Positions 3,955 through 34,853 of a stretch of DNA of 64,000 bases are shown piece by piece. Numbering within the stretch: the stretch's first letter is position 1; every line of letters starts with the position of its first letter. Both the position numbers and the translations under genes were made by a program. The notes beneath the pieces are model-generated. The model had not been told where the DNA came from and made no database searches. It worked only from the letters and a program-made list of their open reading frames with translations. This DNA comes from Promethearchaeota archaeon (GTDB lineage Archaea; Asgardarchaeota; Lokiarchaeia; Sigyniarchaeales; SOKP01): positions 1 through 64,000 of the forward strand of contig RDOA01000008.1 in the NCBI GenBank assembly GCA_011364925.1, given 5' to 3'.

Positions 3955-4108
3955 TCGGGCAAAGTATTCAGCCTACCATTCTCAAACGCGCGAGTGTGTG
4001 GCACTCGAAAGAGGAGTTCGAGGTTCAGGCTTAGGGTGAGAGAGGTTTGTGTAAGTTTTAGACGATAAACATCTCGAGATTGAAATGATGAGGGGGTGAG
4101 TTCCTGAA
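3955..4108 (+). repeat. Repeat copy R2 (subtype B)
   Basis: Shares a perfect 48-mer TCTCAAACGC...GAGGTTCA with R3 and R5; starts 10 nt after the 3945 stop. Confidence 0.95.
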
Positions 4109-4118
4109 TGGGGGTTTG

Positions 4119-4877
4119 CTAATTCCAAATCTCATACCAAATAGCCATAAGTAGAAGCGGAGCAAAAAAACCTATAAGGGCTCCCCAGCCTATAAATTCA
4201 GGATTGATCGCCCAGCCTATCAACAATCCAATAAAACAAGTCACAAAGGATACAACAAGAAAAACGATTAAATTGCTTCCTGTTGAGGATATTTTCACTT
4301 GATCTGATTCTTGCTCCTTTCTATATACAAGTTTAAAGTCAGTGTTATCCGCGATTTGATATAGCTTTGGGTCTATATTTTTTTGATTCCTTTGTTCTTC
4401 GGTCATCTTGCGCAGTTTTTTCTTTTTTTTAATGACTTTAGAAAAATCAGAGTAGATGGGATTTTTTCCGAAGGCCATCGTTCTAAGCCAACGCTTATTG
4501 TCAAAGCTTTCAATCTCGTTAATTTGACATTTATATAAGTCGATCCATGCTAAATTTACAAGAGCATCGAGTCCTTTGAGTGTATGAATTGGATTTTTGT
4601 TGAGGACCAGGATTATCAAGTGCGTGAGATTTTCGAGATTTTTAATCTCGCTAATAGAATTATTAGCGAGTATTAGAACTTTTAGATTCTGTAGTGCTTC
4701 TAAACCTTCAATTTCAGATATTTGGTTATTGCTAAGGTTTAACACTTCCAGATTTTGTAAATCTTCGAGTCCCTCTATCGATGAGATTTGCGTAATTTTT
4801 TTCCCGGAAAGATTGAGGGTTAGTTGACCTTTTCTTCTTTTTGTTTTATACGTTTTATTTTGATAAATTACGGACAT
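4119..4877 (-). CDS. Leucine-rich repeat (SDS22-like) protein with C-terminal TM helices
   Basis: LEVLNLSNNQISEIEGLE repeats; paralog of 14125..14817. Confidence 0.9.
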   Translation of the reverse strand: MSVIYQNKTYKTKRRKGQLTLNLSGKKITQISSIEGLEDLQNLEVLNLSNNQISEIEGLEALQNLKVLILANNSISEIKNLENLTHLIILVLNKNPIHTLKGLDALVNLAWIDLYKCQINEIESFDNKRWLRTMAFGKNPIYSDFSKVIKKKKKLRKMTEEQRNQKNIDPKLYQIADNTDFKLVYRKEQESDQVKISSTGSNLIVFLVVSFVTCFIGLLIGWAINPEFIGWGALIGFFAPLLLMAIWYEIWN

Positions 4878-5030
4878 ATATTTTTATCGTCGATATTGCA
4901 TATAAAAGTTTTTCTGCTTTTTACTAGTTAAATCTATGTATTTGCTGGTAAATTCCATTTATAGTTTTTTTACGGAACGCTCATGGAAGTTCCGAATCAT
5001 TATGGCAGTATAGATCTATAAATAGGTACA

Positions 5031-5189
5031 GAGCTTTCGGGCGAGGTATTCAGCCTGCCACTCTCAAACGCGCGAGTGTGTGGCACTCGAAAGAGGAGTT
5101 CGAGGTTCAAACTTAGGGTGATAAAGGCTTGAATGTGTGAGCGGTGGACGATAAGTGTTTCGAAATTGAAAAAGGGAGTGTGTTCCGGA
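5031..5189 (+). repeat. Repeat copy R3 (subtype A)
   Basis: 5034-5153 differs from R5 at 5 of 120 nt; ends GGGAGTGTGTTCCGGA followed by a T-tract. Confidence 0.95.
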
Positions 5190-5335
5190 TTACTATTTTT
5201 TTTTATAATTTAGTGAAGGTTAATAATTTAGCGTTCTAATTTTATATTGATTAAGTGGCATAAAGTAGGTTTATTTAGAGGTGCATTTACATATTTAAGA
5301 AATCCCTTGGGTGGTGGCTTATCTTTGTAGGGATC

Positions 5336-6345: not shown

Positions 6346-6786
6346 ATGATTTTATGTGGAATCTTGGGCACAATAATTTGGATTAGGTCGAGGCGCTGGT
6401 TCAAAGGTTATAAATATCTGTATCGGTTATTAATCAGAATAATAATCCAGTTATGTATAGTTGGGCTGATTTCTATACTTTCCGCTACCATCGTCTCTCC
6501 TCCGCGTTTATATGGTGAAATCTCAATTTTTTTACCCTTATCTTATCCAGTATTGCTACAATGGGGTATTTCTGGATATATGGTGTACCCTCCTATTCAT
6601 TATTACACAATAAGCGTGTTAGGTATTGATTTTACAGGTGGGGCGTTAGAATTTGGTGCTTCCGCTTACATTCAAGGGCAAATTTTTATGTATAGTATAC
6701 CGTTATTACTATTACTCAATCTGGTCTTTACAGGAGTTCTACTTCTTCTTAGTGAATTATGGAAGGTTTTTTTTTCTAAGAAGTAG
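6346..6786 (+). CDS. Membrane protein, tandem paralog 2
   Basis: Paralog of 5842..6309. Confidence 0.85.
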   Translation: MILCGILGTIIWIRSRRWFKGYKYLYRLLIRIIIQLCIVGLISILSATIVSPPRLYGEISIFLPLSYPVLLQWGISGYMVYPPIHYYTISVLGIDFTGGALEFGASAYIQGQIFMYSIPLLLLLNLVFTGVLLLLSELWKVFFSKK

Positions 6787-6860
6787 TTTAGTTTCTGAGC
6801 GTAAAAGAGTAAATTAATGAACTCCTGATAAATGAAGGTGCAGACATTATTCTCTTGATA

Positions 6861-7121
6861 AGTGCGAGCGAATGTGGTGAGGTGAACCGTGGGAGCGAGA
6901 CGAGCGCACCCGTAGAAGACGGGTTTGGTGAGGTGGGGGTGTAAGTGCCGAACTTTCGGGCGAGGTATCCAGCCTGCCACTCTCAAACGCGCGAGTGTGT
7001 GGCACTCGAAAGAGGAGTTCGAGGTTCAGGCTTAGGGTGATAAAGGCTTGAATGTATGAGCGGTTGACGATATAATGATTCGAGATTGAGAGGAGGGAGT
7101 GTGTTCCGGAGTTTCTACTCC
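6861..7121 (+). repeat. Repeat copy R5, the longest copy (subtype A); candidate structured ncRNA or non-autonomous element
   Basis: Contains all modules seen in the other copies; multiple hairpins; GC-rich against the AT-rich background; T-tract follows. Confidence 0.95.
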
Positions 7122-7231
7122 ATCTTCTTTTTTATTAAGCAATTTTATTTACTAGGGGTAATTTACTATGTAAAGTTTTAATTTCATATTTTCACAGAAC
7201 ATTCAAAATGTAGAATCAAGAGGGAGGAGAG

Positions 7232-7410: not shown

Positions 7411-7461
7411 GTTGGCAGACGATATTAGTTTCGAGATTGAAAAAGGGAGTGTATTCCGGAA
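7411..7461 (+). repeat. Repeat copy R6 (3' module only)
   Basis: GACGATATTAGTTTCGAGATTGAAAAAGGGAGTGTATTCCGGAA followed by a T-tract. Confidence 0.9.
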
Positions 7462-7582
7462 TTTACTTTTTTTTACTAATGGATTGATCCAAAAGAGTGA
7501 AAGAGACAGTTTTAACCACCAATACATTTTTTGTACAAAACTGTAATTTTATATAGTCAAACTATTACCATATTATTGAATT

Positions 7583-9220
7583 GTGAAAGATAATATAACG
7601 CCCGAAGGTTCTCCTTACGATATTCTTCTCCTAGAAAAGGATTTTTCTACAATTAGGCTCTTAACGAGATATTTTGAAAGTAAAGGGGTAACCAGCAAGG
7701 CTGTGGTAAGTGGAGTAAAAGGATTGGAAGAATTAGAACACAACACCCCTAGATTAATAGTAATGTGTATAATGTTACCAGATTATAGTGGGTTTGAGCT
7801 CTGTAAAAAGATAAAATCAAATCCAAAATTGAAACATATCCCGGTATTTTTTTGTACTGCATTCCCTGGTTCTGAAGTTGAAAAACATCTTGTTGAGACA
7901 AAAGCAAACGGGTATATACTTAAGCCTTTTAAGCTTAGCGAATTCGATGGAATTCTCGACTTATTAAATCTACCTAAAAGTTTTGTTTGGAGGAAAATTA
8001 ATCAATACATAACATTGAAATTGGAAAATGGGAAAACTCAAATTTACGTAAAAAACAAGTTCGGTAAAGATTCGGTATATGAGACTGCAGATTTGTATCA
8101 AAAAGAAATAGTAGAGGGTCCTTCTGCACGGCCCTTACACGAAAACCACGATATAAATCCAGAGCAGGAGTTTTGGGGTATTTGTTCTAATCTACAGGCG
8201 TGGTACGAGAACGGTTACGATACTCGTTTGCTGCATACTAACTTAGCATTTAATCTATTAAAAGCATTAGTTAAGGCAGGGGATCTAATTGCGAAACGAG
8301 TCTTTAAAACTGAACTTGCTTTTATATTTAACAATCTAGATGTTGGAAAATTCATTGCGTTAGATCTCTCAAATTTATATTTGAATACAATACCAAGTTC
8401 AATTCAAAACTTTAAAAATCTTAAAAAGCTTGATTTAAGTGGAAATCACTTATCCGCACTTCCGGATTCAATTTCTCATCTTCAATTATTGAGAGAATTA
8501 AATTTAAAACATAATGAATTCGCATCCTTTCCCGCATCTGTTCTAAATTTAAAAGCTTTAGAAAAGTTGGATATAAGTAACAACTTGATAACTAGAATTC
8601 CAGAAGAGATAACTGAATTAGAGTTAAAAACCATTAATATGAGTTCGTGTAACTTAACAGAGATACCAGAGATAATAATGGAATTAAAAACTCTAGAGGA
8701 ATTGAACTTAAGTGAAAATAAAACGATCAAACGACTTCCTGAATCAATAGGAAATTTGAAATCATTAAGAGTTTTAGAATTGAGGTGGCTCAGTTTAGAA
8801 GAACTTCCAGAATCTATAGGAAATTTAACTGATTTACTTAAACTAGATTTAACTTACAATTGGCTACAATACTTACCAGAATCTATAGGAAATCTTATTA
8901 ACTTAGAAGAGTTAATTTTATACGCCAATAATTTGAAAGAGCTTCCTAAATCTGTTGAAAATTTAAAAAATCTTAAAAAGTTAATTTTAACAAAAAACTT
9001 GCTAGAAGAACTTCCCAAATTTCTTTCTAATCTTAAAAATCTGAGAGATTTAACATATGAATATAACGAATTCAACAAACACTCTAAAGCAGAGGAAGAG
9101 CTCATTCAAAAGTTTAAAGAACGATTACAACAGGCTAAAGAAGAAAGATGGGATAAAAAGAAGAATAAAGCAAAAAAGAAAGAAAATTTGAAAAGTAAAA
9201 AAACCTTTAAAAGAAATTGA
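7583..9220 (+). CDS. Receiver-like domain + Loki-type linker domain + LRR protein
   Basis: N-terminal REC fold (IMLPDYSGFELC...ILKPF); EFWGICSNLQAWYE motif; ~10 LRRs (LPESIGNL). Confidence 0.85.
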   Translation: MKDNITPEGSPYDILLLEKDFSTIRLLTRYFESKGVTSKAVVSGVKGLEELEHNTPRLIVMCIMLPDYSGFELCKKIKSNPKLKHIPVFFCTAFPGSEVEKHLVETKANGYILKPFKLSEFDGILDLLNLPKSFVWRKINQYITLKLENGKTQIYVKNKFGKDSVYETADLYQKEIVEGPSARPLHENHDINPEQEFWGICSNLQAWYENGYDTRLLHTNLAFNLLKALVKAGDLIAKRVFKTELAFIFNNLDVGKFIALDLSNLYLNTIPSSIQNFKNLKKLDLSGNHLSALPDSISHLQLLRELNLKHNEFASFPASVLNLKALEKLDISNNLITRIPEEITELELKTINMSSCNLTEIPEIIMELKTLEELNLSENKTIKRLPESIGNLKSLRVLELRWLSLEELPESIGNLTDLLKLDLTYNWLQYLPESIGNLINLEELILYANNLKELPKSVENLKNLKKLILTKNLLEELPKFLSNLKNLRDLTYEYNEFNKHSKAEEELIQKFKERLQQAKEERWDKKKNKAKKKENLKSKKTFKRN

Positions 9221-9814: not shown

Positions 9815-9845
9815 GGAAGAGAAAATTCTTACTGTTACAAAACAG

Positions 9846-9877
9846 TTCGAAGTTGAAAGGAGGGAGCGTGTTCCGGA
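9846..9877 (+). repeat. Repeat copy R7 (3' core)
   Basis: TTCGAAGTTGAAAGGAGGGAGCGTGTTCCGGA followed by a T-tract. Confidence 0.85.
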
Positions 9878-10008
9878 TTATACTTTTTTTAATTATATAA
9901 GTTAGAATTCACAAAAGATCGTGCGACAAAATTCAAAAATTATAAATTAGTATATTTTTACTATGATCAGAAATAAGTTGAAAAAATAGCCTTCTACTTT
10001 AAAATAAT

Positions 10009-11670: not shown

Positions 11671-11761
11671 AATCCTTTGCCCTCTTTTAAAAAAATATTT
11701 CTTTGAGAATTGAATTATTATATATATTCTTTCAAGTCTATTTAATTATTTGCTTGAAGAA

Positions 11762-11792
11762 TTTCGAAATTGAAAAGGGGGTGTGCTTCGGA
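11762..11792 (+). repeat. Repeat copy R8 (3' core)
   Basis: TTTCGAAATTGAAAAGGGGGTGTGCTTCGGA followed by a T-tract. Confidence 0.8.
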
Positions 11793-11956
11793 ATTTTCAC
11801 TTTTTTTTCGTTTTATTAGTAGTAGAAGGATCTTTTTACCAGTATAATAGCAAGGAATCTTTATATATGTCCTTAGTAGTAATCTATACTAATAAAAAAC
11901 ATACTTAGACATTAACTAACAGAGAAATAAAGCGAGAAAATATCGGATTTAATTAA

Positions 11957-13621
11957 ATGGAATCTAAAAAAGTAAGAGAGGATTATAAGGACTCCGATTG
12001 GTTAAAACATCAGTTTTACGATTTAGGGAGAAGTATTCAAGATATTGCTAACGAGCAGGGAGTATCTATGATAACGATAAGAAAGTGGTTGGATATGTCG
12101 GAGGAGAAGAAGCAAGAGCTGCGGAGGAAACCAGATGTGATGTCTCAACGAAAATCATCGATTTACAAAGGTCTATGGAGGTTTAATCAAGGAAACTTTA
12201 AGAAGGCAAATGAGATCTTTGCCGGAGCCATCAAAAAAAATCCTTCTAATGCGGAGGCATGGCAATATAACGCAATGACATTATACGAGTTAGGGATGTA
12301 TGAAGAAGCGTGTACTCAAATTAAGAAAGCACACGAGATAAATCCCTACTCCATCGAGATTTGCTTTGAATTTATAAAAATCCATTTGAAAATTGGTACC
12401 TATGGGGAATTGCTACAGTTCTGTCAAGAGAATCAGAAGTTAGATCCAGACAGGTTCAAATATAAGTTTGTCGAGGTTCACGCACGATTTAGGCAATACG
12501 CTCTCGCTTTGGAACAGCTTAACGATTTATTGACCACACGACTCGAAGATTCAGATTTACTGAGGGTAAAGGATTATTTGATGCAAGCAAAAAGAAATTC
12601 CAGTAACTATTATATACCTGGTATTCAAACGGGTTTATTGCCACATATTCCTATTGGAGATGAGATTATCTATAGCTCAAACATGAGGATTCATTGGGAA
12701 ATTATTATTCCATCAAGTGAGAGTAAGTGGGCCAAAGTATCAGATGTTCTATCAGATTTGTCGAGCATTTTAGATTTTATATTCGATATAGTGGATGATG
12801 CCGTCGAGGATAAGATTATTAGAGGAGAATTCTCTACTGATGTCTTGATGACCCACGAAGGAATCTTTTTCATGAAGACGAATCCAGAAGAAAAGAGTAA
12901 ATTAAAAATACCCAAATTTATCCCTTGGCAATATATTAAGGTGGAAAAAGATAGTACTCTAGTAGTAGAGGATTATCATATAAAATTTAACTTCAATCAT
13001 TTACCCAATTATATAAAATTTAACTTTAATTATTTACCCAATTATGAATCGAACTCTTCATTCGTCGTTCGGACGCAGAAATTCTACGAATATATTATGG
13101 CTAAGAGATACAAATATACACAGAAGTGTTTAGAAAAAATAAAAAAATATGTAAAAGATTTTAGAGACGCTGATGCTCAAGAATGGTTTAATAGAGGTAA
13201 AAACAGTAATATCTGGCACTCTGACTACAACTTAGGGAATCAATTAGCTGATGCATTTGATCCCGCCAAATTAAGAATGAGACACGGCGATAAAGAAGTG
13301 AGTGATAAAGCTGAGAAAATAATCCTTATGTATTTAAATGAGAACGAGGGGAAAGCATTTACATCCAGCAGCCTTAGAAAGAGAATCGGAGAAACTGTAG
13401 AAGATTTGAAAATCCTAAATTATGTAAACGAAAATCTTGAGGGTATTTTAAACAAGTTAGTATATAACGGTAAGATCCAATTAGAAACTCATAATTTTGG
13501 TAAGTTTTATTATACAATACATTGTCCTTTTTGTCATAAAGAAATTACTAAAGGAGAGAAAATCTGTTCATATTGTCATACATCACTAGAAGAAAAAAGT
13601 GATAAAGGTTTGAATGTGTGA
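11957..13621 (+). CDS. Mosaic protein: N-terminal HTH, TPRs, C-terminal Zn-ribbon
   Basis: SIQDIANEQGVSMITIRKWL HTH; TPRs; CPFC...CSYC; last 7 codons and the stop come from repeat R9. Confidence 0.85.
   Translation: MESKKVREDYKDSDWLKHQFYDLGRSIQDIANEQGVSMITIRKWLDMSEEKKQELRRKPDVMSQRKSSIYKGLWRFNQGNFKKANEIFAGAIKKNPSNAEAWQYNAMTLYELGMYEEACTQIKKAHEINPYSIEICFEFIKIHLKIGTYGELLQFCQENQKLDPDRFKYKFVEVHARFRQYALALEQLNDLLTTRLEDSDLLRVKDYLMQAKRNSSNYYIPGIQTGLLPHIPIGDEIIYSSNMRIHWEIIIPSSESKWAKVSDVLSDLSSILDFIFDIVDDAVEDKIIRGEFSTDVLMTHEGIFFMKTNPEEKSKLKIPKFIPWQYIKVEKDSTLVVEDYHIKFNFNHLPNYIKFNFNYLPNYESNSSFVVRTQKFYEYIMAKRYKYTQKCLEKIKKYVKDFRDADAQEWFNRGKNSNIWHSDYNLGNQLADAFDPAKLRMRHGDKEVSDKAEKIILMYLNENEGKAFTSSSLRKRIGETVEDLKILNYVNENLEGILNKLVYNGKIQLETHNFGKFYYTIHCPFCHKEITKGEKICSYCHTSLEEKSDKGLNV
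12978..13043 (+). repeat. In-frame 33-bp tandem duplication
   Basis: ATATAAAATTTAACTTYAATYATTTACCCAATT x2, encoding IKFNFNHLPNY / IKFNFNYLPNY. Confidence 0.9.
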
Positions 13622-13680
13622 GCGGTGACGAAAAAAATTTCGAAATTGAAAAAGGGAGTGTGTTCCGGAGTTTTTACTCC
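13599..13680 (+). repeat. Repeat copy R9 (subtype A)
   Basis: GTGATAAAGGTTTGAATGTGTGAGCGGTGACGA...TTTCGAAATTGAAAAAGGGAGTGTGTTCCGGAG. Confidence 0.95.
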
Positions 13681-13822
13681 AAACTTTTCTTTTAAATTTT
13701 TCATTTTGTTTTTTTTAGGCTTTCGGCCTTTAGTGTATCTTTTGGGGATAAATGCTAAATAGGTGGGTTACATTTGTGTTGTGTAATCAACAATTAAGAA
13801 AATAGAGGTGAGAGCAGTATAA

Positions 13823-14032
13823 ATGTCAAAATGTCCGTATTGTAAGGGGGATTTTCATTTAGAAGATTTTTTTGAAGTAGTTACTAAGGAGACGAAAAAA
13901 GGAAAAATTAGGGCAGACTTTCGTGATTTTAAGGGAGAGAGTTATAGTGTGAGAGGGTATGGGGTTAAGATGTGGGCTTGTCCTGGTTGTGGTTCGATTT
14001 TGGGGTTTTCAGAAGTGGCTTATGCTACTTAA
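13823..14032 (+). CDS. Small Zn-finger protein
   Basis: CPYC...CPGC; GAGGTG RBS; only gene between R9 and R10. Confidence 0.8.
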   Translation: MSKCPYCKGDFHLEDFFEVVTKETKKGKIRADFRDFKGESYSVRGYGVKMWACPGCGSILGFSEVAYAT

Positions 14033-15913: not shown

Positions 15914-16060
15914 TTCGACAAAACTGTCAGCCTATCGCTCTCGAATGAGCAAATCTGTGTCATTCGAAAGAAAAGCCCGAGGTTCAAGCTTAGAGTGCTA
16001 AAGGCTTGGAAGTGTGAGAAGTTGACGATATATTTTTGGTTCGAAGTTGAGTAGAGAGAT
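15914..16060 (+). repeat. Repeat copy R12 (long, diverged, subtype A)
   Basis: CAGCCTATCGCTCTCGAA...CATTCGAAAGAAAAGCCCGAGGTTCAAGCTTAGAGTGCTAAAGGCTTGG...GACGAT...TTCGAAGTTGA, colinear with R5. Confidence 0.85.
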
Positions 16061-16365
16061 TGGATTTTATTATATTTACTCCCTCGACATCCCACTAAGA
16101 CCTTCTGTGATTTTCTGGAACAAGATAAGGAAAATTATTTTAACACGGATTTAAAAAGACCTATAAAGAATTGAATATTATCTTATTAAATTATAAAGAT
16201 ATGTTTTAAATTTAACTGAGTTTTAAATTTTCGATTCGCACATTGCGAGTTGTATGCGAAGCATATTCCGATTTTCACTTTGAATAAAAAGTTCAATTCT
16301 TTCTATTTTTAGGTAATCGGATTTATAATAGTAACTTGTACAAAAAACTAAAGAGTAGTAGAAAT

Positions 16366-16758
16366 ATGCCAAAGATGAAAAAAAAACAGGTAAAAAGAGG
16401 ACGGAGGAGTTCTACACCTGCTCCCACTCCGACAATCTCAAGAGTAAAAATGCCATATAGAAAAAATGGAGAAATGTTTGCGCGGGTGGTTGATATTTAT
16501 GGTCAAGAGCGGATGGGCGTGTATTGTGAAGATGGTAAACACCGTCGTGGAAGAGTCCGAGGAAAAATTAAAAAAAGAGTTTGGATAAGAAAAGGAGATT
16601 TAGTAATAATTAATCCATGGGATTTTGAAACAACAGTTGATGGTGAATCTGAGAAATGCGAAATATCTTGGAGATATTTACGCCATGAAGTCTCTTATTT
16701 AGAACGAAATAATAGAATTCCTAAATCTTTAGATATTAATAACATTCCAGTCTTCTAA
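16366..16758 (+). CDS. eif1a: Translation initiation factor aIF-1A
   Basis: GEMFARV...CEDGKHRRGRVRGKIKKRVWIRKGDLVIINPWDF; ATG at 16366 preferred over TTG at 16336. Confidence 0.93.
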   Translation: MPKMKKKQVKRGRRSSTPAPTPTISRVKMPYRKNGEMFARVVDIYGQERMGVYCEDGKHRRGRVRGKIKKRVWIRKGDLVIINPWDFETTVDGESEKCEISWRYLRHEVSYLERNNRIPKSLDINNIPVF

Positions 16759-17360: not shown

Positions 17361-17442
17361 GCCTAGAAAATAATTAGAAGGGACCATATTATTTACGGTT
17401 TCGTTTTAGGCTCTATTGTAATCAAAAGGATTGCACTTGCCA

Positions 17443-17531
17443 GCGAGAGTTTACAACAATCAAAAGAGAAGCTCTCAGACTTAGTGTAATGAGGGCTTTA
17501 ACATGGAAGCCGTCGACGATAAGTCTTTCGA
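17443..17531 (+). repeat. Repeat copy R14 (degenerate)
   Basis: GCGAG..CAAAAGAGAAGCTC..CAGACTTAGTGTAATGAGGGCTT...GACGATAAGTCTTTCGA, colinear with R3. Confidence 0.65.
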
Positions 17532-25144: not shown

Positions 25145-26119
25145 ATGAACCGATTGGAAGATTCTAAATCTCTCTATGAAAAAGCAGGAAGGCCTAAAGA
25201 AGCAAAATATAAGATATTATTTACAGGTTTGGATGGGGCAGGAAAAACAAGCATAATCTTGGCTCTGCAGAGGGAATTCTCAAAAATAGCTTTAATTGAA
25301 CCAACGAGGGGTGCTGAAAGGAGCAATTTTACATTATTAGGAAGAGAGATTACAGAATGGGATTTAGGAGGTCAAAAAAATTATCTTATTTCCTACCTAA
25401 AAAGCCCCGGCAAATATTTTGATGAGACAGCAATTGCAATTTATGTTATTGATATATTAGACACGTCTCGTATTGTTGAATCTCTGAGTTATTTCTATAA
25501 TGTCATTGATAAATTCAGAGAATTGAAAATTGAACCCTATATCAACATTTTCTTTCATAAATATGATCCCAAGTTAATCCAAAGCGTAGAAGAACAAATT
25601 CAATCTAAAATTTTTGGGCTAAAAAGAGAAATTACTCAGAAAGTGAATTATAATAAGATTCAATATTTTACAACTTCAATATATAATCCATATTCAATCA
25701 TGAATGCAATGTCTAAAATTTTACTTGATTTATTTCCAAAATCAGAGTTGTTACAAAAAACAATTGAAGAATTTGCGAGAAAACTGGATTGTGAAGGGTT
25801 AATGGTTATTGATAAAAATTCGATTATTTTAGGTTCCTTCTTCAAAGATGACGAGTCAAAAAAACTTTTAAGCAGTACAATTGCATACTTTTTGACTCTT
25901 AATGATGTATTTGATGAGATGGACATAGAACAACAAGAAGATCAACTTGTTCTTGGAAAAATGGGAAGATATTTCTTATTCAAACCAATCCTCTTAAGAG
26001 AAACATCCATAGCATACTATATGCTAGTATTAAAGAAACACAATCCATTTAATATCTATTATATAAACAAAGATTTTCAGACATTCGCTAATATGTTCAA
26101 GGATATTGTTAATAGTTAA
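25145..26119 (+). CDS. Arf/Rag-like small GTPase with C-terminal roadblock-like domain
   Basis: GLDGAGKT, WDLGGQ, HKYD; paralog of 33888..34853. Confidence 0.92.
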   Translation: MNRLEDSKSLYEKAGRPKEAKYKILFTGLDGAGKTSIILALQREFSKIALIEPTRGAERSNFTLLGREITEWDLGGQKNYLISYLKSPGKYFDETAIAIYVIDILDTSRIVESLSYFYNVIDKFRELKIEPYINIFFHKYDPKLIQSVEEQIQSKIFGLKREITQKVNYNKIQYFTTSIYNPYSIMNAMSKILLDLFPKSELLQKTIEEFARKLDCEGLMVIDKNSIILGSFFKDDESKKLLSSTIAYFLTLNDVFDEMDIEQQEDQLVLGKMGRYFLFKPILLRETSIAYYMLVLKKHNPFNIYYINKDFQTFANMFKDIVNS

Positions 26120-28230: not shown

Positions 28231-29463
28231 TTACTCTTGCATACTCTCAAGTTGATTAGATTCGGATATTTCATTGATTGATTTCATATATTTTTCTATT
28301 TGTAAGTATAAATTATTACAAAATTCTTCAAACTCCATCGGATTAAATGTAGCGCCAGCTTCTCTGTGAACATCTAACTTTTTCAAATCAGCCCAACTTA
28401 ACCCAACACCTAATATGGGAATGATTGTCAATCCCTTTTCTCGAGCGATATTTAACTCTGTGTTACAATCGTTGGAATTCAACGATTTTTCCGTCGACAT
28501 GAACACTAGTAATTCACAACGTGGTACTATTTTTTGCATCCAAGCGTCAATATTTCCCGTTAAATCAGCTTCGCAATAATATACGTAGCGTATTCCTTTT
28601 TGTCCTTCTAAGAATTGGGCAATTTCGTTGATCCGGTATCTCCTGTAATCATCAACCGCATGAGTGATAAAAACGCGAATTCCGCGCTTAAAAGTAGACC
28701 CTAATTCTACAAACTTTCCTGAAACTATTATTCCTATTAAAGCAATTATAAGTACAAAAAGTGCGTAAACCTGTAATTGACTCACGATAAAAAATGTGAA
28801 AGAATTCACCCATCTAACGAAGACGGCCCCAAAAAACATCACACCGCTTAAAATAAAATATGACGTTCTTATTCTCTCTCCAAAGAATACTAAATAGCTA
28901 GCCCCAATTGAAACTAATATAAGAGATGCGTACATAAACAGTAGATAAAAAGTATCGTTGAATAAAGAAGTGGCATCGAGAATTAAATTAAACATTGTGT
29001 TTATAAAATACAAAACTGCGAAAGCTATCATATAGTTTCCATAATATCTTCTGTTACTAATTCCAAATAACACGAAAGCGATAATTAAAACAAAGAAATG
29101 GCTGTATATAATGGCTAACATTAACCAATATAAGTTTGGAAGCGAAATTATTTTAGGATTCCATAAATAAAAAGGTAAACTAAATCCTAACAATGTATTA
29201 ATGAAGTCGTATCCGATTTGAGCCAGAATAAAATAGACGTAGACGATAATGCAAATAATTCTTAGAAACTTTAATCGTTTGAACTTTCTTTTATCTGTCT
29301 CTAACTCTACGCTTCCTAAGATCAAAAAGGACAACTGACTTAAACTAAGAGCAAAATAAAGATATAATATTGTATTATTCTGAAGAATTAAATAATGTAA
29401 AGGAAAAAATAAATTGACGAGAAGCACTAAACCAATCTTATATTTTTTTTGGATAGTTAACAC
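28231..29463 (-). CDS. Multi-pass membrane protein with C-terminal TIR-like domain
   Basis: ~8 TM segments, then RVFITHA...LVFMSTEKSLNSNDCNTELNIAREKGLTIIPI. Confidence 0.8.
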   Translation of the reverse strand: MLTIQKKYKIGLVLLVNLFFPLHYLILQNNTILYLYFALSLSQLSFLILGSVELETDKRKFKRLKFLRIICIIVYVYFILAQIGYDFINTLLGFSLPFYLWNPKIISLPNLYWLMLAIIYSHFFVLIIAFVLFGISNRRYYGNYMIAFAVLYFINTMFNLILDATSLFNDTFYLLFMYASLILVSIGASYLVFFGERIRTSYFILSGVMFFGAVFVRWVNSFTFFIVSQLQVYALFVLIIALIGIIVSGKFVELGSTFKRGIRVFITHAVDDYRRYRINEIAQFLEGQKGIRYVYYCEADLTGNIDAWMQKIVPRCELLVFMSTEKSLNSNDCNTELNIAREKGLTIIPILGVGLSWADLKKLDVHREAGATFNPMEFEEFCNNLYLQIEKYMKSINEISESNQLESMQE

Positions 29464-31819: not shown

Positions 31820-33013
31820 TTGCATGTAATTATATTTTTATGTAGAATAATATCAGACGAACAATTAGGAAAAATCTTTACTAACGGTGAAGCTAAAATA
31901 CTGCTAGATTTGTTTTCAGGAGCAGGTGGTTTGTCTTGTGGATTTGAATTAGCAAATTTCAAAATCGATTTAGCTATTGAATTAGATAATATTCATTATA
32001 AGTCTTATAAATTTAACCACCCCGATACATTAAGCCTTAACGAAGATATAACTAAATTTAACTGCAATGAGTTTGAGGAGACCTATATTAAGGGGAAAGA
32101 GGTTGAAGGTATAATCGGAGGTCCTCCATGTACAGGATTTTCGTCAGTAGGGAACAGAAGATCAAACGATCCACGCAATATGTTAGTATTTTTCTTTATA
32201 AAATGGGTAGAATACTTTAAACCCTTATTTTTTGTTATGGAAAATGTAAAAGGCATACTTACTATGGGTAGAGGACTAGTAGTAGAAAAAATCAAAAAGA
32301 TGTATAAGGACATCGGTTACAAGTGCAAATTGCAAACCTTATTAGCCGCAGATTACGGAGTCCCGCAATTAAGAGAGAGAGTCTTATTTATCGGGGCAAA
32401 GAATAATAATATTCAGCAGATCAATATCAAAAAAACTCATAAAGAAGATTCATATCAAAAAAATTCTTCTGACATAAATCCTTTACCATCTTTTCTAAAA
32501 GTTGGGGATGCTCTTTCAGATATTCTTGATCTTACTCCATACAGGGAAAACAACGGAAACGATATAGGTATAGAATATAATAAACCGCCTCAAACTAGTT
32601 ATCAAGCGTACTTAAGAAAACACTCAGACAAACTTTACGAGCATGTCGCTCCAAATCATAGCAAGAAAGTTGCAACTAGAATTTCTCACATTGAGCAAGG
32701 TAAAAATCACGCTTCTTTACCAAAAGAACTGCAGTTAAAAGGAGGTTATTCTAATATATATGGTAGGCTTCATTTAAATAAACCGGCAGACACTATAACG
32801 GGTAATTGTGGTTGCGTAAGCGCACCGGGAAGATTCATTCACCCTACTCAAAATCGGGCGATTTCGGTTAGAGAAGCTGCTCGGCTTCAGTCGTTTCCAG
32901 ACAATTATCGTTTTTTCGGAAGTATGAGAGATAGATACAAGCAAATTGGAAACGCAGTACCTCCTTTATTGGCTAACGCGATTGCGAAAGCAATAAAAGA
33001 TGTTGTCAATTGA
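31820..33013 (+). CDS. dcm: DNA (cytosine-5)-methyltransferase
   Basis: DLFSGAGG, GGPPC, ENV, QLRER, RLQSFPD, QIGNAVPP; start uncertain. Confidence 0.95.
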   Translation: MHVIIFLCRIISDEQLGKIFTNGEAKILLDLFSGAGGLSCGFELANFKIDLAIELDNIHYKSYKFNHPDTLSLNEDITKFNCNEFEETYIKGKEVEGIIGGPPCTGFSSVGNRRSNDPRNMLVFFFIKWVEYFKPLFFVMENVKGILTMGRGLVVEKIKKMYKDIGYKCKLQTLLAADYGVPQLRERVLFIGAKNNNIQQINIKKTHKEDSYQKNSSDINPLPSFLKVGDALSDILDLTPYRENNGNDIGIEYNKPPQTSYQAYLRKHSDKLYEHVAPNHSKKVATRISHIEQGKNHASLPKELQLKGGYSNIYGRLHLNKPADTITGNCGCVSAPGRFIHPTQNRAISVREAARLQSFPDNYRFFGSMRDRYKQIGNAVPPLLANAIAKAIKDVVN

Positions 33014-33887: not shown

Positions 33888-34853
33888 TTGGTGGATTCTT
33901 TAATATTTTATGAAAAGGATGGAGAACCTAAAGAGAAAACATATAAAATTTTATTTACAGGTTTGGATAGTGCTGGAAAAACGAGTATAATTTTAACTTT
34001 ACAGAGAGAGTTTTCTAAGATAGCCTTAATCGAACCAACGAGGGGTGCTGAGAGAAGAAGTTTTACATTGTTCGGAAAGAAGATCACGGAATGGGATTTA
34101 GGCGGTCAAAAGAGTTATTTAATTTCCTATTTAAAAAACCCTGGTAAATTTTTTGACGGTACCGAAATCGTAATCTACGTTATTGATATTTTGGATGCCT
34201 CTCGTACTAAAGAATCTTTAGAGTATTTGTACGAACTCGTGGATAAATTTAAAGAGTTAGGGATTGAACCGTACATAAACATCTTTTTTCATAAATATGA
34301 CCCAAAATTAATCCAGAGCGTTGAAAAACAGATTAAATCAGAAATTCTTACGCTAAATAAAGAAATTATAAAGAATTTGGATTACAAAAAGCTACAGTTC
34401 TTTACGACCTCAATTTATAATCCGTATACGATTATGAACGCTATGTCTAAAATTTTATTAGAGTTATTTCCTAAAGCAGAGTTATTAAGAAAAACCATTG
34501 ATCAGTTTGCGAATAAACTAAAATGTGAGGGTTTACTAATTACTGACAATAATTCGATTATTTTAGGTTCATGGTTCAAAGATAAGGAATCCAAAAAACT
34601 TTTAAGTGGCACCATTGCTTACTTCTTAACGCTTAACGATGTGTTTGAAGATATGGTAATGGATCAAAGAGAGGATCAAATCGTCGTCAGAAAAATGGGA
34701 AAATATTTCTTATTCAAGCCATTCGTCTTAGAGACAACGAAGATACCGTATTATATGCTTGTATTAAAGAGTAATGATCCAATGGGACTATATTTTATTA
34801 ATAAAGATTTCGAGACTTTTGTAAAAATCTTCGGTAAAATCATCAAGAGCTAG
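33888..34853 (+). CDS. Arf/Rag-like small GTPase with C-terminal roadblock-like domain
   Basis: GLDSAGKT, WDLGGQ, HKYD; GAGGTG RBS before TTG. Confidence 0.92.
   Translation: MVDSLIFYEKDGEPKEKTYKILFTGLDSAGKTSIILTLQREFSKIALIEPTRGAERRSFTLFGKKITEWDLGGQKSYLISYLKNPGKFFDGTEIVIYVIDILDASRTKESLEYLYELVDKFKELGIEPYINIFFHKYDPKLIQSVEKQIKSEILTLNKEIIKNLDYKKLQFFTTSIYNPYTIMNAMSKILLELFPKAELLRKTIDQFANKLKCEGLLITDNNSIILGSWFKDKESKKLLSGTIAYFLTLNDVFEDMVMDQREDQIVVRKMGKYFLFKPFVLETTKIPYYMLVLKSNDPMGLYFINKDFETFVKIFGKIIKS

Follow-up and report, generated by a model that had tools for sequence, protein, structure and literature searches.

A partial copy of the 23S rRNA 3' end and trailer within a co-oriented repeat array of an Asgard archaeal genome

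Chloroplast 4.5S rRNA is a functional ribosome component that is processed from the rRNA operon, and in some lineages rRNAs are fragmented at the ES39 site. Supersized ES39 expansions are known in Asgard archaea (PMC7594248), and the leader-trailer helices of archaeal pre-rRNA are cut at BHB motifs (reviewed in PMC8339473 and PMC7038931). Partial duplications of rRNA genes around inserted DNA have been described under the term 'insertion with long target duplication' (Lim, Furuta and Kobayashi 2012, PMC3457768), and in Haloquadratum a partial tRNA-Thr copy without a nearby integrase borders an integrated element (PMC3119063).

Here we analyzed a 64-kb stretch of contig C101 (the window) from genome G000, a MAG that is 100% complete by marker genes (assembly of 3.9 Mb, 112 contigs); the genes of the window include an aIF-1A gene and other archaeal and Asgard-type genes. 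An element at 6864-7133 resembles the archaeal LSU 3' domain in sequence, in secondary structure and in the last ~40 nt derived from ES39, but it stands apart from any 23S body, among protein genes, and has a decayed ES39 tail and an A-C mismatch in H101. It comprises the 23S region that chloroplast 4.5S rRNA represents as a separate piece (after H98, H99-H101), but the 4.5S rRNA is a working part of the ribosome and the window copy most likely is not. As in archaeal pre-rRNA processing stems, window 7007-7121 is complementary over ~86 bp to the 23S leader; however, the stem is unusually long here (~170 nt of trailer), and its 3' strand alone, without the partner strand, has been multiplied at least ten times. 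The cases of Lim and colleagues share with this locus a direct rRNA duplication, a few hundred nt long, on either side of foreign DNA and without the involvement of a transposase or integrase, but those were single events in bacteria, whereas the events here are iterated into arrays that are anchored at the 23S 3' end with its trailer and occur across one archaeal genus as well as in another family. Truncated tRNA-gene copies are similar in that 5'-truncated, co-oriented copies of a stable RNA lie downstream of the intact gene and delimit variable DNA; in contrast, the target is here the 23S 3' end plus trailer, the truncation points are scattered, and the units consist of one or two genes with no integrase or element hallmark genes. 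Integron cassette arrays likewise show co-oriented repeats 3' of small gene units in a polarised arrangement, but the present array has no IntI and no attC-type bipartite inverted repeat, and its repeats are derived from rRNA and trailer and vary in length.

Rfam scans of the 64-kb window at the gathering threshold and of 18 kb at E <= 10 both gave no match for the element, and a phage database search gave no match. The LSU fragment surfaced only in a short scan (421 nt, window 6780-7200), where 6902-6992 matched positions 2885-2973 of the LSU_rRNA_archaea model (RF02540) with 50.5 bits and an E value of 1.1e-13, the gathering score of this model being 50. Whole-window Rfam scans at the gathering threshold can evidently overlook short rRNA fragments. 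The relatives are MAGs labelled Promethearchaeota or Candidatus Hermodarchaeota. Homologues of the element were searched in 60 relatives, and one strong full-length match per genome was found in 30 of the 36 genomes of the genus; many of these full-length matches in relatives lie within ~1.3 kb of a contig end. In all 15 best-per-genome homologues, from which the structure alignment was built, a stretch of 150-170 nt separates the element from the H94-H97 body of 23S rRNA upstream, a body that the window element does not have. The LSU match terminates inside the homologous element in G008, G016, G036, G025 and G019, and full matches to the archaeal model (2525-2545 bits) span L045 6806-10173, L054 6829-10182 and L047 13467-10134, all of them ending within the element. 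Position 2987 of the model ends at L045:10173, which corresponds to alignment column 150 and to window 7006. The variable stretch that precedes the element in G008 is an insertion of ~190 nt between model positions 2882 and 2883, the site of ES39/H98. Judged by homology, window 6864-7133 is the counterpart of an archaeal 23S 3' end plus trailer and not a new RNA gene. Its features are as follows.

6864-6900, + strand: tail of the ES39/H98 expansion, decayed; lies within the ~190-nt insertion of G008
6904-6907 with 6989-6992, + strand: H99 (GCGC/GCGC), from the RF02540 match and covariation
6909-6923, + strand: H100, from the RF02540 match; hairpin CCCGT/ACGGG
6923-6988, + strand: long imperfect stem, equal to H101
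6929-6985, + strand: H101, from the RF02540 match and covariation
6948-6959, + strand: cap CCGAA-CT-TTCGG inside the long stem
6992-7008, + strand: hairpin CGAGTG/CACTCG
6993-7006, + strand: 3' terminal nucleotides of 23S rRNA, equivalent of the mature end at ~7006
7005-7023, + strand: competing hairpin CTCGAA/TTCGAG
7007-7121, + strand: 23S 3' trailer, the 3' strand of a long processing stem that pairs with the leader on contig C44
7066-7109, + strand: repeated 3' module, with GGGAGTGTGTTCC at 7095-7107
7108-7121, + strand: terminal hairpin GGAGT/ACTCC, followed by the T-tract
7122-7133, + strand: pyrimidine/oligo-T tract, terminator of the rRNA unit, with TTTTTT at 7128-7133

The initial annotation had described a chain of hairpins on a G-rich strand, and all of these hairpins are present in the window sequence; the + strand contains 37.5% G vs 17% C across the annotated range. 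By the criterion that this annotation itself had set, the fold is not unusually stable. With 200 dinucleotide shuffles as the control, the minimum free energy of -88 kcal/mol compares with -85 +/- 4.8 kcal/mol (z -0.64), 53 of the shuffles fold as well as the 275-nt element on the + strand, and the - strand reaches -57 kcal/mol with a z of -0.78. In the proposed comparison of strands, the + strand fold is 31 kcal/mol more stable than that of the - strand because of G-U pairs, which suggests that the feature arose at the RNA level and on the + strand. Across the 15 homologues H100 is invariant and always paired, and for H99 and H101 99.8% of the cells are paired over the 29 pairs of H99-H101. 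Five of these pairs are compensatory with both sides changed, and the covariation score was reached in none of 500 shuffles. The predicted covariation is accordingly real, but it belongs to the helices of rRNA and not to a new RNA.

The remaining hairpins differ in conservation. As a conserved pairing the cap CCGAA/TTCGG was not borne out, being paired in only 76% of the cells of the 15 homologues; the conserved pairing at this site is GUGCC/GGUAU, which covaries with GUAGG/CCUAU. The hairpin at 6992-7008 is paired in 83% of the cells with no compensatory change. The hairpin at 7005-7023, its supposed mutually exclusive partner, is paired in 55.6%, no better than slid controls; both hairpins exist in this sequence, but the second is not conserved, so that only the window copy has the mutually exclusive pair. 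The unit ends at an archaeal oligo-T terminator, as had been proposed, and the T-run is also found in all aligned native copies. What survives of the suggested structured ncRNA is its RNA-type nature and its strand; it is not a discrete new ncRNA of ~260 nt, but a 23S tail with its trailer. The helices that make up the hairpin chain are those of rRNA, taken over from the parent 23S gene, and the hairpins, G-richness and covariation of the element need no new explanation.

Several other identities were considered and rejected. An independent ncRNA gene is contradicted by the z values of -0.64 and -0.78 and by truncated copies that start inside H101 without its 5' strand. A new conserved ncRNA, which was our initial reading of the compensatory changes, was abandoned when the homologues turned out to sit at the 23S end in relatives. 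A conserved AT-rich box ~25-30 nt upstream in relatives had the appearance of a TATA-like promoter of the element's own, but the box lies inside ES39 of 23S. The hairpin GGCGCG-GUGA-CGCG resembles an Alu-domain helix of SRP RNA; it also lies in ES39, and 32 of 40 genus members carry SRP RNA at another locus. RNase P RNA was found elsewhere in G000, on contig C27.

We then considered the trailer, which extends ~125 nt beyond the 23S end (7007-7133). The window trailer forms 86 bp with the leader on contig C44 (the 200 nt before the 5' end of 23S) at -92.8 kcal/mol, with a z of -8.4 compared with -0.64 for self-folding of the element; with this leader the sister copies reach z values between -3 and -8.6, and an intergenic stretch used as a control gives -0.3. 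The leader-trailer duplex is continuous in four genomes (200-250 nt upstream of 23S), down to the 3' module, whose GGGAGTGTGTTCC lies opposite GGAACATACTCCCC of the leader. A compensatory change from GGAAC/GTTCC to AGAAC/GTTCT affects both strands in four relatives, and G008 has a matching GTTGT/ACAAC at the 3' module. The natural partner of the trailer is the 23S leader and not the trailer itself. The trailer is rich in G and U because it pairs with an A/C-rich leader in the processing stem, and its role as a strand of this stem likewise explains why native copies conserve the 3' module. Since the leader is single-copy in G000, only the trailer side has multiplied.

BLAST and nhmmer searches of the whole G000 assembly (3.9 Mb, 112 contigs) detected homologues of the element on C101 only, between 1.4 and 17.5 kb and all on the + strand. 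There are at least ten co-oriented copies, which have the terminator-proximal end in common and are cut back variably on the 5' side.

1404-1527, + strand: internally deleted copy, with the 5' strand of H99, H100 and the start of H101, then the distal trailer
3955-4122, + strand: 5'-truncated sister copy, starting in the 3' strand of H101
5024-5207, + strand: 5'-truncated sister copy, starting inside the H101 loop; 91-93% identical to the full copy
6864-7136, + strand: full copy
7414-7475, + strand: 3' module alone (last ~55 nt; families D4 and D5)
9835-9892 and 11757-11808, + strand: further copies of the 3' module only
13598-13692, + strand: trailer-only copy
15927-16090, + strand: older, diverged 5'-truncated copy with ~75% identity
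16859-16921 and 17441-17508, + strand: degenerate copies of the 3' module

The internally deleted copy, which is made up of families D12, D7 and D8, is 97% identical to 6887-6948 before the jump to the distal trailer. On the 5' side the copies begin at scattered points between element positions 7 and 241, often inside H101; as the truncated copies cut through this helix, the hairpin chain is not what the copies have in common. Copies lie directly 3' of + strand genes, the units of the array consist of one or two genes, and some of the genes between copies are on the opposite strand.

Comparable arrays were found in relatives. Co-oriented, terminator-anchored and 5'-truncated copies lie downstream of 23S in G008, G020, G031, G034 and G014. 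In the closed genome G050, which belongs to another family (L114-L119, G050:C1:85900-116000), three co-oriented copies of its own 23S trailer are located 4.6, 19.7 and 23.2 kb after the 23S end, and the genes between them encode LRR, PRTase-CE and HD-domain proteins and no integrase. G060 showed no such array of trailer copies downstream of its 23S gene.

The element had also been proposed as an ssDNA substrate for an HUH nuclease or a hairpin-recognising recombinase. Genes for such enzymes were not found nearby, and the truncated copies are without one strand of the main hairpin, so that this proposal was not upheld. No Y1 HUH transposase (PF01797) was detected in the G000 genome, and its sole tyrosine recombinase is on contig C27, with none on C101. 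PF00589 genes number one or two per genome (none in G020) and are all on contigs other than those of the arrays; the arrays of five relatives have none nearby. Recombinase, transposase and reverse transcriptase domains were not found in the ORFs scanned in window 1-41 kb or in the first 20 kb downstream of the G050 23S gene, nor did the surroundings of the arrays in relatives yield an integrase, HUH transposase or other mobile-element domain. An integrative element whose tyrosine integrase uses the RNA gene as an att site was rejected, as no integrase is near any array, and the missing Y1 transposase led us to discard an HUH/IS200-type element. Retroposed, 5'-truncated cDNA copies appear unlikely, since every copy has the same orientation at a single locus and some of the genes between them run the other way.

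To place the array relative to the 23S gene, we compared gene order with that of relatives. Contig C44 ends 784 nt into 23S, and the remainder of the single 23S gene is unassembled. The genes that lie upstream of 23S in relatives are on C44, and those that lie downstream are at 40.4-48.8 kb of C101 in the same order. The synteny of the two contigs identifies C101 as the DNA downstream of the 23S gene. In relatives, the conserved downstream flank is found 0.9-10 kb after 23S and starts 0.9-5.5 kb after it; in G000, as shown by synteny, ~40 kb of variable genes (the island at C101 1-40 kb) stand between the 23S gene and this flank.

At the alignment columns that are invariant in the genus, the window copy was compared with 14 native copies. 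It is changed at 10 of 104 such columns, native copies at 0-3. Eight of the ten changes are in the ES39 tail (8 of its 27 invariant columns) and destroy a hairpin that is invariant in 14 species: the native GGGGCGCG-GUGA-CGCG reads GAAUGUG-GUGA-GGUG in the window copy. H99-H101, by comparison, are changed at 2 of 77 invariant columns, and the only unpaired cell of the window sequence in these helices is A6952 with C6961, the A-C mismatch in H101. Variants private to the window copy include A6952, C6969 and the altered ES39 tail. The copy lies 6.9 kb into C101, after protein genes and three other partial copies. In the fully assembled G020, the native 23S end is followed by a 1.8-kb insert and then by a copy that starts at CGAACCGTGGG; this secondary copy lies ~2 kb after the native one and has an insertion of five G in H101. 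Because it is missing the 23S body, has a decayed ES39 tail and is analogous to the copy in G020, the window copy is very probably secondary and non-ribosomal, with the native 23S 3' end of G000 not in the assembly. Recent copying, gene conversion or retained function would likewise be compatible with the near-intact state of H99-H101.

The opposite reading, that the element is the genuine, functional 23S 3' end, would require either that the contig is chimeric upstream of 6864 or that the 23S rRNA is split at ES39, with the H99-H101 piece made separately as in chloroplast 4.5S rRNA. It is consistent with the finding that no other H99-H101 sequence exists anywhere in the G000 assembly, with the small number of departures from the genus consensus in these helices, with a trailer fully complementary to the 23S leader of G000 itself, and with a copy that begins at ES39, the site prone to rRNA fragmentation in some lineages. 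However, the DNA upstream of 6864 holds protein genes and three partial copies instead of 23S, the otherwise invariant ES39 hairpin is destroyed, H101 contains a mismatch, and G020 has native and secondary copies side by side. MAG contigs often break in rRNA genes, as C44 does, and the absence of the native copy from the assembly is therefore expected. We regard a genuine end as quite improbable. Retention of the copy as a trans-acting RNA, transcribed alone or as a 3' UTR, whose trailer would pair with the 23S leader and compete with pre-23S processing, or alternatively would couple cassette transcripts to this processing (BHB cleavage, ligation), appears very improbable. In its favour, significant complementarity to the leader, itself present once, was seen for every copy tested (z -3 to -8.6), copies come immediately after + strand genes, even the shortest of them retain the 3' module, and one junction of cassette and module is conserved in three species; yet homology by itself accounts for this complementarity, which weakens as copies age, and older copies decay as expected without selection. 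The possibility that the element is an attC-like site, or the hairpin end recognised by an HUH or tyrosine recombinase, of a dedicated folded-ssDNA cassette system is suggested by the integron-like architecture of co-oriented repeats between one- or two-gene units and by two short palindromes in the 3' module. This we consider extremely improbable, given the outcome of the enzyme searches in G000, around the arrays of five relatives and in the ORFs scanned, 5' limits that are scattered and not fixed as in site-specific crossover, and palindromes that are accounted for by leader pairing.

Taken together, our results make it likely, with good confidence, that the element is a secondary, partial copy of the 23S 3' unit with inherited hairpins, one member of an array of insertion and duplication scars. 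The feature itself is real and its identity ordinary; the iterated array of 23S termini is the unusual part. The value of the analysis is mainly corrective, in that a candidate structured RNA or ssDNA substrate becomes a 23S tail and a strand of the processing stem. It also gives the repeat family an origin, since copies of the 23S 3' end and trailer delimit the neighbouring cassette array, and it recasts this array as a hotspot of insertion and duplication at the rRNA terminus, found in several congeneric species as well as in one closed genome from a different family.

In this explanation, the window copy comprises the last ~40 nt of ES39, H99-H101, the 23S terminus (~7006), the whole trailer and the oligo-T terminator. 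The copies of the array may be the scars of repeated DNA insertion at the 23S 3' end, each with a long stretch of the target duplicated. Possible routes are 'insertion with long target duplication', the integration by single crossover of circles that bear a homologous tract, and template switching at the rRNA terminator, all three of which would use host recombination or replication functions and no dedicated recombinase. Of these, insertion with target duplication would be nearest to a process already described, and the other two would lead to the same products. The window copy presumably does not work as rRNA, but it is predicted to provide a ready-made 3' end, through its oligo-T terminator, for the + strand gene at 6346-6786, and may serve as a homology tract for further rearrangement. 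More tentatively, and on balance doubtfully, the 23S 3' end and trailer could be a landing pad at which Lokiarchaeia-type Asgard archaea repeatedly gain genes, with the 3' strand of the processing stem and the terminator duplicated each time. Polarised arrays of one- or two-gene units, with LRR, TPR, zinc-ribbon, extra aIF-1A and defence-like genes, would then be built without a dedicated recombinase, and the copies might persist as terminators or through pairing with the pre-23S leader. If true, this would amount to an rRNA-anchored, host-driven analogue of the integron.

Some of the genes associated with the arrays recur between species. A gene for a 69-aa zinc-ribbon protein is located between trailer copies at window 13823-14032. 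Its homologues (57-64% aa identity) are found between repeat copies in G034 (L066) and in G031 (L065, two copies), and the junction from the zinc-ribbon stop codon to the 3' module is conserved in the three species. A second aIF-1A gene lies in the old end of the array (window 16336-16758); it is 67% identical to the copy on contig C53 and 86% to a gene in the array of G014 (L068). In relatives, an extra aIF-1A gene and genes for GH16 and DUF6011 proteins are again found either downstream of 23S or beside trailer copies. The gene at window 7583-9220 joins a response-regulator receiver domain to a long LRR region, and LRR proteins are also encoded in the arrays of G008 and G034, and in G050 directly downstream of 23S (L118 2167-4287 and 5141-6520).

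Further observations concern the genomic setting. The Archaea_SRP model (RF01857) had no match in G000, the MAG of 100% completeness; in the 32 of 40 genus members where SRP RNA was found, it scored 45-85 bits, under the gathering score of 96.5. In the closed genomes G044 and G055 of the same order (L115, L116), a 16S rRNA gene lies 300-600 nt after the 23S 3' end; in the genus of the window, 23S is followed by protein genes, as opposed to this 23S-16S order. The island on C101 additionally contains two Gtr1/RagA-type GTPase paralogues (window 25145-26119 and 33888-34853), a TIR-domain multi-pass membrane protein at 28231-29463 and a C-5 cytosine DNA methylase at 31820-33013.
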